Numbered from the stretch's first letter, positions 23,123 through 26,732 are shown. The stretch is 64,000 bases of DNA from Psilocybe cubensis (GCA_017499595.2 CM039000.1:1984001-2048000), one strand, 5' to 3'. Notes: generated by a model from the letters alone, not told the origin. Translations and numbers: made by a program.

Positions 23123-25110
23123 ATGCTCTCTAAACTGTCTCGGACAATCCCCAAGAGGTCGCTTGCGTCGAAGGTGTCGACTATCAGTAGTTGTCGCACA
23201 TTTGTTCAACCTTCTGGCGCCGACAGAGCAAGTGTAGTGGATGTACCATCTACATATCAGGACGACAACCACTTTGCACCTAGACAAGGTGTGATAACTC
23301 ATTATTTTTGTTCTGTATTTACATGTTGACCTTGCTCCAGATATGCTCGGCTTTAAGCTCGATGCGCCGCTTCGTGAGGGTTCAGTGGAAGCCAAAACTC
23401 GACCAATTTATCTGGACATGCAGGTCTGTTGTTTCCTGCTACGACTTACTGTCAATGAACTTTATATCAACTGTAACCAAGGCCACTACTCCTGTGGACC
23501 CGAGGGTGCTGGATGCAATGCTGCCTTACTTGACTGATCAGTATGGCAATCCGCACAGTCGGACTCACACATATGGTTGGGAGGCAGAACAAGGTGTTGA
23601 GGATGCCCGAAAGGTATGCATGGCAGCTGCTACATCCACCATCTCTAACTGGTTTATATGTAGCACGTCGCCGACTTGATTGGTGCGGACGCGAAGGATA
23701 TAGTGTTTACCTCGGGAGCCACCGAATCCAATAACATGTCTATCAAAGGCATTGCCCGATTTCATAAGGACAAAAAGCGTCACATAATTACAACTCAGAC
23801 AGTGAGTGTTTAGCTGTGAAGCTGACAATCGAATTTGACTTAGAACAATAGGAACATAAATGTGTTCTTGATTCATGCAGAAAGCTCGGTGAAGAGGGCT
23901 TTGAAATCACGTATCTTCCTGTTCAAAAAAATGGTCTTATCTCCTTGCAGGAACTTGAAGCTGCTATCAAACCTACAACATCACTCGTATCGATCATGGC
24001 TGTCAACAACGAAACTGGTGTAATCCAACCTTTGAAAGAAATTGGCGCTATTATTCGAAAACACAGAGGTGTCTACTTCCACACAGATGCCGCCCAAGCC
24101 ATTGGGAAAATTCCTTTGGATGTCAATGAAATGAACATTGATTTGATGAGCATCTCTGGCCACAAGCTGTATGGCCCCAAAGGCGTTGGTGCTTGTTACG
24201 TCAGGCGAAGACCTCGGGTTAGACTGGAGCCAATTCTCAGTGGGGGAGGTCAAGAGCGTGGATTGCGTAGTGGTACTGTCCCCACTGCACTTGTCGTTGG
24301 CCTAGGTGAAGCTGCCCGACTTGCACAAAAGGAGATGGCTGTGAGTTTCGACTTTCATTCCTCGTTCATGATGAGTATCTGCATTACAATTACGCGTATG
24401 CGTTGAGTCAAGTGGTAGACGTGGCAGCAAATTCTTGTTTCCACAAACCAGCTTAGCCATGACCTTTGTGCAGGGGTGCTGATGTTTCTGGGGGTGCCAT
24501 TGATGAACGATTTACTGATGCCCAACTTTTGTTAGAGGGATCACGATCATGTCAAGAGGCTATCAAACAGGCTCATAAGTAGAATCGATGCTGAGGTGGA
24601 GCATGTTGTGCGAAACGGAGACCCCAATGGTTATCCAGGATGCGTCAACCTCAGTTTTTCCTACGTCGAAGGCGAAAGTTTGTTGATGGCCTTGAAGGTA
24701 GGAATGGTCACCGACTTTTGTATGCTCTAATTATGAACTCTTCCAAGGACATTGCTCTCTCATCCGGGAGTGCTTGTACTTCTGCCTCGCTAGAGCCGTC
24801 CTATGTTCTGCGTGCCCTTGGTATGCTCTTTCATGATCACCAAAACTACGAGGACTAACATTTTTTAGGCGCTGCAGAAGATATGGCTCACTCATCACTT
24901 CGCTTCGGTATTGGACGTTTTACGACTGAGGCGGAAGTTGACTTCGTGGTGGCACACATTATTAAGACTGTGCACAAACTGCGTGAAATGAGGTATGACC
25001 CCTCACTTCTGTGCCTTGTTCTGCTGTGTACTAAGTCCTTTTGCAGTCCTCTTTGGGAGATGGTGCAGGAGGGAATTGATATTAATTCGATTGATTGGTC
25101 GCAGCATTAG
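23123..25110 (+). CDS. NFS1: Mitochondrial cysteine desulfurase
   Basis: Mitochondrial presequence; [61 protein letters not shown]; ends IDWSQH*. Confidence 0.97.
24364..24486 (+). ncRNA. Candidate intronic box C/D snoRNA with antisense element to U6 snRNA (SNORD94-like target)
   Basis: Lies in a 195-nt NFS1 intron (24341-24535). Box C ATGATGA 24368-24374, box D CTGA 24479-24482, and upstream CTTTGTGCAGGGGT complementary to U6 GCCCCUGCACAAGG. Confidence 0.65.
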
Positions 25111-25294
25111 TCTGCATATAACTCTGTCGTTCTACATTTCTACATACATAATATATCTCACAGAGTCAGAAATGAAAGGTGGTCCGTGCCCTGAGAAGGC
25201 ATTTTGATGCATGTGTCGAAATTGAAACTCAGATGCAGAGCAAGTTGAATCCCACAACTCACTGCTTTGTTATACACCTCATTCTCTGACCACC

Positions 25295-26732
25295 ATGTCT
25301 AGACGCCTTTATCTTGGCAGTATGCCTCTTCTTTCCAATGTTGTCTGCATAGTTTTATGGCTAATTCACTATCCAGGGCTACCTACCGATGCCCGTTCGG
25401 AGGATGTTTCCAAATTTTTCGACGGTTATGGCCGAATCATCGACTGTCGTGTCATGACTGGTGCGTTCAATTCCTTCAAACTTCGACAGTACAGTATTTA
25501 AAATTATTCTTTTAGGTTTTGGGTTTGTTGAATTCGAAAATGCAAAGGTAGTCAACACTATTCACAGTTGTTCAAATAGACTTCTTAACGCGGTCTTTAG
25601 GACGCCGAGGATGCTGTCCACAACTTCAACGGCAAACCCTTCATGGGTGTCAAGTACGACTGATTTAGTGTCCAGGGTCTTCTTTATTAACTGCTTTTTG
25701 CAGTATTGTAGTCGAGTTCGCCAAGGAAAGTCGTCCTCGTCGAGAGGTTTACGAAGACAGAGGCGGTTATGGGTATGGCCAACGTTCTTGCAAATGCACA
25801 CACAGGGCGTTCAATTGGCTTATAATTCTAGAGCTCCCCGTGCCCGTAGGCCTCCTGGAATCCGCCTGATTGTATCTGGAGTTTCCCGTGACACTAGCTG
25901 GCAGGTACGACCTCTCTCCTAATCCTCGTGTTGAACAGGTTTCTTGGCGAATGCGTGAATCTATCGCAGTCGCCATTGTCATTCGAAGTACCGATACTGT
26001 TCCTTATCGTTGATATATTGGGCTATGGCTATGGCCTTTCCGCACAAAGAAGCCCGCACGGACCTAACCCTTTACTGCCTGTAGGACCTGAAAGACTTTG
26101 GTCGGGATGCTGGCAGCGTCTCTTTCGCTGATATTGATCGTGACATTCCCGGACAAGGGTGAGTTACACATGTTTGTCTCTTTCTGTGCTTATTACTTAG
26201 CTCCTTTCACAGAGTACTTGAGTATCTTTCTAGAGAGGATGCTGATCGTGCTCTCAAGGAACTTGATGGCAAAGAACTTCGTGGACGCCCTGTTCGCGTC
26301 GCTCTTGACGACTCTGTGAGCCAAGCTTGTATGATCTTTGAGCAAATGCTTAACCACTGTCAGCGTTCCGGACCTGATAATTATCGTCGAGACGATCGTC
26401 GTGATGATCGTCGCGATGACCGATACAGTAGGGATGACCGTAATGACAGATATCGCCGTGATCGTTCAAGGTCGCCTCCCCGCCGTGGTGAATACGAAGA
26501 CCGTCGTTCCGCCAGGTCGCCCCCTTCCAGACGGGAGGCTGACGATAAAAGACCTGCAGGGTACGATGATTACCGGCGCGGAGGTTATGATGACCGCAGA
26601 GGGCCTGATTATTATTATGACCGACGTAGGGATGATCAAGATCGTCGTCGAGATGACAGAAGACGCGACGACAAAGAAGATCGATACGACGACAGGCCAA
26701 GGCACGCGAATGGTGAAGGATGGTCTCGTTGA
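25295..26732 (+). CDS. SR-family splicing factor with two RRMs (SRSF4/5/6 / Srp2-like), RD/RS-rich tail
   Basis: RRM1 RLYLG...GFGFVEF; pseudo-RRM signature SWQDLKD split by an intron; C-terminal RRDDRRDD/RSRSPP low-complexity domain. Confidence 0.92.

Follow-up and report, generated by a model that had tools for sequence, protein, structure and literature searches.

A probable conserved box C/D RNA in an intron of the fungal NFS1 gene and its likely role as a guide for 2'-O-methylation of U6

The main finding obtained in this work is that an intron of the NFS1 gene of Psilocybe cubensis very probably encodes a real, conserved intronic box C/D snoRNA, whose most likely job, as indicated by its antisense element, is the 2'-O-methylation of the third cytidine in the CCCC run of the U6 internal stem-loop. 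Taken as a whole, the reading in which this RNA would be released from the NFS1 intron and would guide 2'-O-methylation of the U6 position equivalent to human C62 is given a probability of roughly 0.75. The catalytic RNA of the spliceosome is U6, whose internal stem-loop contains methylated cytidines. Fungi commonly have intronic C/D snoRNAs, and basidiomycete snoRNAs in general are under-annotated. The large comparative inventory of fungal snoRNAs grew from ascomycete seed sets (PMC5824354).

The host intron and the elements within it

The window, that is, the whole stretch of 64,000 nucleotides of Psilocybe cubensis DNA that was analysed, contains at positions 24341-24535 of the plus strand an intron of 195 nt in phase 0, which on inspection of the sequence opens with GTGAGT and closes with TTAG. 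Splicing at exactly these limits is seen in a 1615-nt contig of run X10, which is RNA by guess: position 24340 is followed there directly by 24536, and the 195 nt left out are bounded by GT..AG. The host was recognized as an IscS-subfamily cysteine desulfurase by a profile match of both flanking exons; of the 406 profile positions, the exon 5' of the intron covers 105-266 and the exon 3' of it 268-320. Four further introns, assigned to the gene from its reading frame, measure 50, 52, 48 and 54 nt, and a loose end of X10 at 24698 supports one of them. An earlier sequence-only reading of this DNA had described the 195-nt intron and its boxes, and all of them lie where it had put them, the intron span being that of the X10 splice joint. 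The same reading had held that almost all other introns of the window are 45-65 nt long, a statement that stands for the NFS1 gene (48-54 nt, n = 4), to which the comparison was confined.

The elements recognized are listed below in window coordinates; L018, L019, L020 and L022 are orthologous loci from metagenomes, described in the next section, and A1 and A2 are alignments.

24341..24535, plus strand: intron of the IscS-type cysteine desulfurase gene NFS1 that hosts the element (sequence; X10 splice joint; IscS profile on the flanking exons; same-position intron in the orthologues)
24363..24487, plus strand: predicted mature box C/D snoRNA, with ends placed by inference about 5 nt outside the boxes; 115 nt from C to D
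24368..24374, plus strand: box C, ATGATGA (sequence); GTGATGA in L018-L020 and ATGATGA in L022
24403..24406, plus strand: degenerate box D', TTGA; TCGA in L018-L020 and CCGA in L022; the G immediately 3' of the box is invariant
24407..24457, plus strand: internal helix closing the D'/C' part, with arms 24407-24417 and 24446-24457 (RNAalifold consensus)
24457..24462, plus strand: degenerate box C', CCATGA; CGACGA-like in L022; directly 5' of the guide
24464..24477, plus strand: antisense guide CTTTGTGCAGGGGT, with one spacer nucleotide (G24478) before box D (18-mer of run X13; invariant columns of A1 and A2)
24479..24482, plus strand: box D, CTGA (sequence), at a distance of 53 nt from the 3' splice site; kept in X13 and in every locus
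24362..24510, plus strand: window-specific inverted repeat, TCGTTCAT at 24362-24369 and ATGAACGA at 24503-24510 (MFE fold; flank duplex of -9.5 kcal/mol)
24501..24506, plus strand: second TGATGA (sequence)
24515..24519, plus strand: branch-point-like CTGAT, containing the CTGA (24515-24518) that had been read earlier as a second box D (matching place in the orthologues)

The intron holds a box C, a box D, degenerate internal D'/C' boxes and an antisense element with a D+5 position, all of them features of box C/D snoRNAs. In such RNAs the antisense element is at least 10 nt long and stops 1-2 nt short of box D, and the nucleotide to be modified stands opposite D+5. The box motifs alone are weak evidence, at chance level. 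RTGATGA occurs 29 times in the window, both strands counted, against 25.9 +/- 5.1 in shuffles, and a stretch of 195 nt would carry it by chance on the appropriate strand in about 4% of cases, while the 4-mer CTGA is commonplace. The fold energy of the intron is likewise ordinary when compared with shuffles (z = 0.02). No Rfam family reached its gathering score anywhere in the window, and nothing was found at E up to 10 on window positions 24300-24580 or on positions 3000-3260 of L022; at the gathering score, the metagenome loci L017-L020 and L022 gave no match except a riboswitch in L017. Since the boxes alone do not exceed chance, the case rests on conservation.

The guide, boxes, internal helix and intron position are conserved in three further lineages

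A first body of evidence comes from a comparison in which no pattern was imposed, where four runs aligned to window positions 24100-24760 at an identity of at least 80%. Run X13 represents a relative whose upstream exon is 79% identical to that of the window (50 differences in 241 nt), and the same 1396-nt contig that carries this exon carries an exact copy of 24465-24482 (an 18-mer with 0 differences). This 18-mer corresponds to the guide minus its first nucleotide, together with the spacer and box D, and it lies 132 nt from the exon end in X13 versus 123 nt in the window. The rest of the X13 intron gave no alignment at 80% identity or more, and the sequence past box D differs. Runs X9 and X12 are identical to the window and have no independent weight.

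A second body of evidence was obtained from a metagenome scan with a pattern consisting of TGATGA, then 76-106 nt, then the 17-mer TTGTGCAGGGGTGCTGA. Box C and the guide are present in the resulting loci by construction, because the pattern imposed both and the scan covers only loci that carry them. The location of the matches, on the other hand, was not dictated by the pattern: five of the six loci, comprising four distinct sequences (L018, identical to L021; L019; L020; and L022), fall in one and the same intron of one gene, NFS1, and this is evidence of conservation. The orthologous introns measure 202, 194, 194 and 203 nt and occupy the same position as the window intron. Their exons share a nucleotide identity of 0.73-0.77 with the window in L018 and L019, and of 0.66 and 0.55 in L022, the downstream exon of L020 being cut off; at the protein level, exon 2 is 92, 90, 92 and 74% identical to the window in L018, L019, L020 and L022, respectively. 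Compared with a protein atlas, the L022 protein met bacterial aminotransferase clusters only.

Judged by its sequence, L022 comes from a fungus far more distant than the sources of the other orthologues. In this locus the three upstream exon blocks are contiguous and the blocks that follow lie too close together to leave space for introns, so that two neighbouring introns of the window are absent, while the intron with the predicted snoRNA is kept. The host intron appears to be retained for the sake of the snoRNA. The sixth scan locus, L017, was rejected as an orthologue. It is bacterial and corresponds to a TPP riboswitch (65.8 bits) that precedes a thiC-like ORF on a contig of 344 kb, a chance match explained by the resemblance of part of the search string to a motif of TPP riboswitches.

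Conservation extends to features that the pattern did not impose. The purine before TGATGA and an upstream TTC are conserved in A1 and A2. In A2, the degenerate box D' shows an invariant G48 A49 G50 and the degenerate box C' an invariant G104 A105 together with a conserved GCC..GA. Measured from box C to box D, the element spans 115 nt in the window and in L018, 110 nt in L019 and in L020, and 100 nt in L022, and across the loci a distance of 53-63 nt separates box D from the 3' splice site. The internal helix comprises 11 pairs; in a test on 5 sequences from three lineages, with the structure derived from the same alignment, 90.9% of its cells are paired versus 79.3% in shuffles (a value reached by none of 500), and 5 of the 11 pairs show a change in both partners (3 of 500 in the shuffles). 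Control helices slid along the alignment were 14.5-52.7% paired. By comparison, the stretch from box C to D' has no conservation between lineages in A1 and A2, and for this reason a single guide is proposed, with no second target at D'.

A terminal stem brings C and D together into the kink-turn, although some known intronic snoRNAs lack one, and the loci analysed here are heterogeneous in this respect; where the stem is weak or missing, this speaks against the snoRNA reading. In L022, a stem of 7 bp directly flanks box C and box D (-13.6 kcal/mol); in the window the terminal pairing is displaced and external (-9.5 kcal/mol), and in L018-L020 it is practically absent (-3.0 to -4.2 kcal/mol). 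The pairing of the window is that of the inverted repeat, which takes in the second TGATGA and could fold as an external stem. As the repeat is absent from L018-L022, it was placed outside the conserved element.

In summary of these comparisons, the guide, the boxes, the internal helix and the intron position are conserved in three further lineages. The sequence-only reading had anticipated that box C, the guide and box D would be conserved within an otherwise divergent orthologous intron, and the alignments bear this out in all three.

The predicted U6 target and the alternatives

Nucleotides 24466-24477 of the guide, the part that pairs with U6, are invariant in all lineages, and G24474 is the fifth nucleotide upstream of box D. 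Against human U6 as printed in PMC5467268, positions 24477 down to 24464 pair with G59-G72 in 14 contiguous pairs (11 Watson-Crick and 3 G-U, counted by hand), and by the D+5 rule G24474 stands opposite C62, the CCCC run being C60-C63 by hand count. Against the S. cerevisiae U6 oligonucleotide printed in PMC3177201, 13 contiguous pairs were counted by hand (11 Watson-Crick and 2 G-U). Human and S. cerevisiae U6 differ here at two positions, which face U24469 and G24468, and the guide pairs with either variant. These pairings refer to the human and budding-yeast U6 as printed, and on them both the pairing and the C62 numbering of the sequence-only reading hold. That reading had also named SNORD94 as the guide of human C62, as is indeed stated in PMC6894857. 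In S. pombe numbering the target would be C56, given the 6-nt offset implied by the equivalences A47/A41 and A70/A64.

It could be argued that the intron encodes a genuine box C/D snoRNA whose physiological target is another RNA (rRNA, tRNA or another snRNA site), the match to U6 being coincidental or secondary. U6 alone among candidate targets was compared with the guide, and target predictions made from single sequences have often been wrong for fungal snoRNAs, as noted in PMC5824354. Nevertheless, the nucleotides of the guide that do not vary are precisely those engaged with U6, two divergent U6 sequences as printed both allow the pairing, and the D+5 position falls on a cytidine that is methylated in humans and lies inside a cluster reported as methylated in fission yeast. 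In addition, 12-14 contiguous pairs within a target of about 100 nt would be very unlikely by chance, by an estimate that is not a computed value. We therefore consider another primary target unlikely, and prefer U6 as the RNA that the NFS1-intron guide would address.

Searches for candidate U6 sequences were carried out in two collections with the ACAGAGA box followed by the complement of the guide. In viral_contigs, 11 such loci and one locus with the 18-mer were considered as U6 and rejected as chance matches, since none of the 12 has any Rfam match. In genome_contigs, 4 loci were found, all in bacterial records. No U6 match was obtained in the genome of locus L013, nor in 14 control genomes. 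When the literature was queried with an 11-mer of the guide complement, the hits were, as far as titles and the first lines of abstracts indicate, apparently primers of unrelated genes, and they were discarded.

Less probable than a different target is a conserved cis-acting intron element, for example a regulator of NFS1 splicing or expression or a riboswitch-like structure, with no guide acting in trans, in which the C/D-like boxes would be incidental. Box motifs at chance level and the ordinary fold energy of the intron would be compatible with such an element, and so would the resemblance of part of the conserved string to a motif of TPP riboswitches, to which the chance match L017 is due. 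However, the TPP riboswitch family (RF00059) has no match at the gathering score in the window, in L018-L020 or in L022, other Rfam families are equally without a match there, and in the window intron and L022 this extends to E of 10; a TPP-riboswitch reading of the intron was rejected on this ground. Furthermore, the conserved pieces coincide exactly with C, D', C', guide and D at snoRNA-like spacing, a canonical terminal stem lies beside C and D in L022, and the distance to the 3' splice site, itself conserved, agrees with the processing of an intronic snoRNA, for which constraints of this kind are described in PMC2780460. Taken together, these observations make a purely cis-acting element quite improbable and favor a guide snoRNA released from the NFS1 intron.

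The branch-point consensus is CTRAY. A longer C-D'-C'-D RNA that would use TGATGA 24501 and CTGA 24515, overlapping the branch point and competing with NFS1 splicing, as had been suggested in the sequence-only reading, is very improbable, for although both motifs are present in the window and the inverted repeat joins 24362-24369 to 24503-24510, the interval of 8 nt from the second TGATGA to the second CTGA could not accommodate a guide, the second TGATGA is missing in all four distinct orthologues, the second CTGA appears near their 3' splice sites as CTGAC (L018) or CTAAC (L019, L020 and L022), branch-point-like forms of which CTAA is not a box D, and the terminal stem of L022 directly flanks the first CTGA; as the second TGATGA and CTGA are not conserved as boxes, competition with splicing is left without support.

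Proposed mechanism and comparison with known U6 guides

Based on these findings, we hypothesize that a box C/D RNA of the small nucleolar (or Cajal-body) type, some 115-125 nt long, is encoded within the NFS1 intron. After splicing, the intron would be debranched and exonucleolytic trimming would free the snoRNA, which core C/D proteins bound to the C/D kink-turn would shield from further trimming; in this class of RNA the bound proteins are fibrillarin, Nop56, Nop58 and Snu13. The single conserved guide, directly 5' of box D, would then pair with the 5' strand of the internal stem-loop of the fungus's own U6, and fibrillarin would thereby be placed on the third cytidine of the CCCC run, equivalent to human C62, for its presumed methylation.

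As a class, a C/D RNA in an NFS1 intron is ordinary. Its interest lies in the direct experimental handle that it offers on one U6 nucleotide, since the candidate is conserved, its boxes follow the consensus, its host intron is fixed and its target is predicted to the nucleotide. The NFS1 intron, the invariant guide and box D together also provide a search image for other fungi. Within the titles and opening lines of abstracts searched, supplements excepted, no description was found of an NFS1-hosted snoRNA or of a basidiomycete U6 guide.

Among fungi, the family known as Nc_CD_54 (CD_54) is a box C/D family reported only in Pezizomycotina, for which U6-70 (U6-55 of N. crassa) is the predicted target, with a mean of -18.1 kcal/mol (PMC5824354), and the N. 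crassa RNA is given as 125 nt long and intergenic (PMC2780460). Like the NFS1-intron RNA, it is a fungal box C/D RNA of similar size with a highly conserved U6 guide. The two differ, as described, in that the U6 guide of Nc_CD_54 lies upstream of D' whereas the NFS1-intron guide lies upstream of box D, and in that the N. crassa gene is intergenic while the present one is intronic; they are set apart by these descriptions only.

In S. pombe, snoZ30 (mgU6-47) guides the methylation of U6 A41 and sno530 that of A64, and C55, C56 and C57 of U6 are reported as sites for which the authors found no guide (PMC10484740). Both snoZ30 and sno530 are fungal box C/D guides of U6 2'-O-methylation, as the NFS1-intron RNA is predicted to be, and sno530 acts on the same stem-loop that is predicted for the NFS1-intron guide. 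Their targets are A41 and A64, whereas the NFS1-intron guide would address the C55-C57 cluster; sno530 is moreover described there as having a non-consensus box C and an atypical architecture, in contrast to the consensus C and D boxes of the NFS1-intron RNA. We tentatively advance, as possible but rather doubtful at present, a broader proposal: that the NFS1 intron and the U6 guide are an ancient obligate pair, the intron being kept for the guide even where its neighbours were lost; that this family, or a diverged relative, may be the missing C55-C57 guide of fission yeast; and that methylation of this U6 position may be ancestral to fungi and animals and not a speciality of vertebrates.

Known vertebrate guides for cytidines of the U6 stem-loop are SNORD94 and SNORD67. 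SNORD94 (U94) is, like the predicted NFS1-intron RNA, of the box C/D class and intron-encoded, and the nucleotide that it guides, C62 (PMC6894857), is the one predicted for the NFS1-intron RNA: in the CCCC run, which lies at the base of the internal stem-loop of U6, it is the third cytidine. They differ in host gene and in organism, SNORD94 being found in vertebrates and the NFS1-intron RNA in fungi. Nor is any homology of sequence or structure detectable between them, as neither the window intron nor L022 gave an Rfam match at E up to 10, the SNORD94 family, which has a covariance model in Rfam, included. This relation is probably best described as one of functional analogy, with or without common descent. 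In conclusion, the RNA predicted in the NFS1 intron would be a new fungal element and a functional analogue of SNORD94.

Potential pairing within the predicted intronic snoRNA

In the NFS1 intron of the window, the stretch directly 3' of box C (24375-24390) can pair, in the minimum-energy fold, with positions 24468-24478 of the invariant guide region, the predicted antisense element for U6. The same pairing is possible in the minimum-energy folds of all the orthologues folded (L018-L020 and L022), and although the stretch differs in sequence from lineage to lineage, pairing with the guide is predicted in each. Such pairing could mean that the guide masks itself, or else it could be an artefact of folding.

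Inverted repeat around the predicted snoRNA

24362-24369 TCGTTCAT / 24503-24510 ATGAACGA, arms of an inverted repeat, NFS1 intron of the window

This repeat, which overlaps box C and includes the second TGATGA, may form an external stem drawing the snoRNA ends together; the orthologues L018-L022 lack it, and it is confined to the lineage of the window.

Distant orthologue, unrelated match and neighbouring gene

L022 2674-3986, - strand, distant NFS1 orthologue
L017 748-838, - strand, TPP riboswitch (RF00059), 65.8 bits

The distant orthologue keeps the snoRNA-bearing intron and lacks introns where NFS1 of the window has neighbouring ones. The single unrelated match of the scan, L017, is explained by the TPP riboswitch; the metagenome contig, 344 kb long, has a thiC-like ORF downstream of it.

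In the next gene 3' of NFS1 (~25290-26100, + strand), an intron-interrupted ORF piece gave a weak RRM_1 match (19.9 bits, slightly below the cut-off of 20.7). The gene possibly encodes an RNA-binding or SR-like protein.
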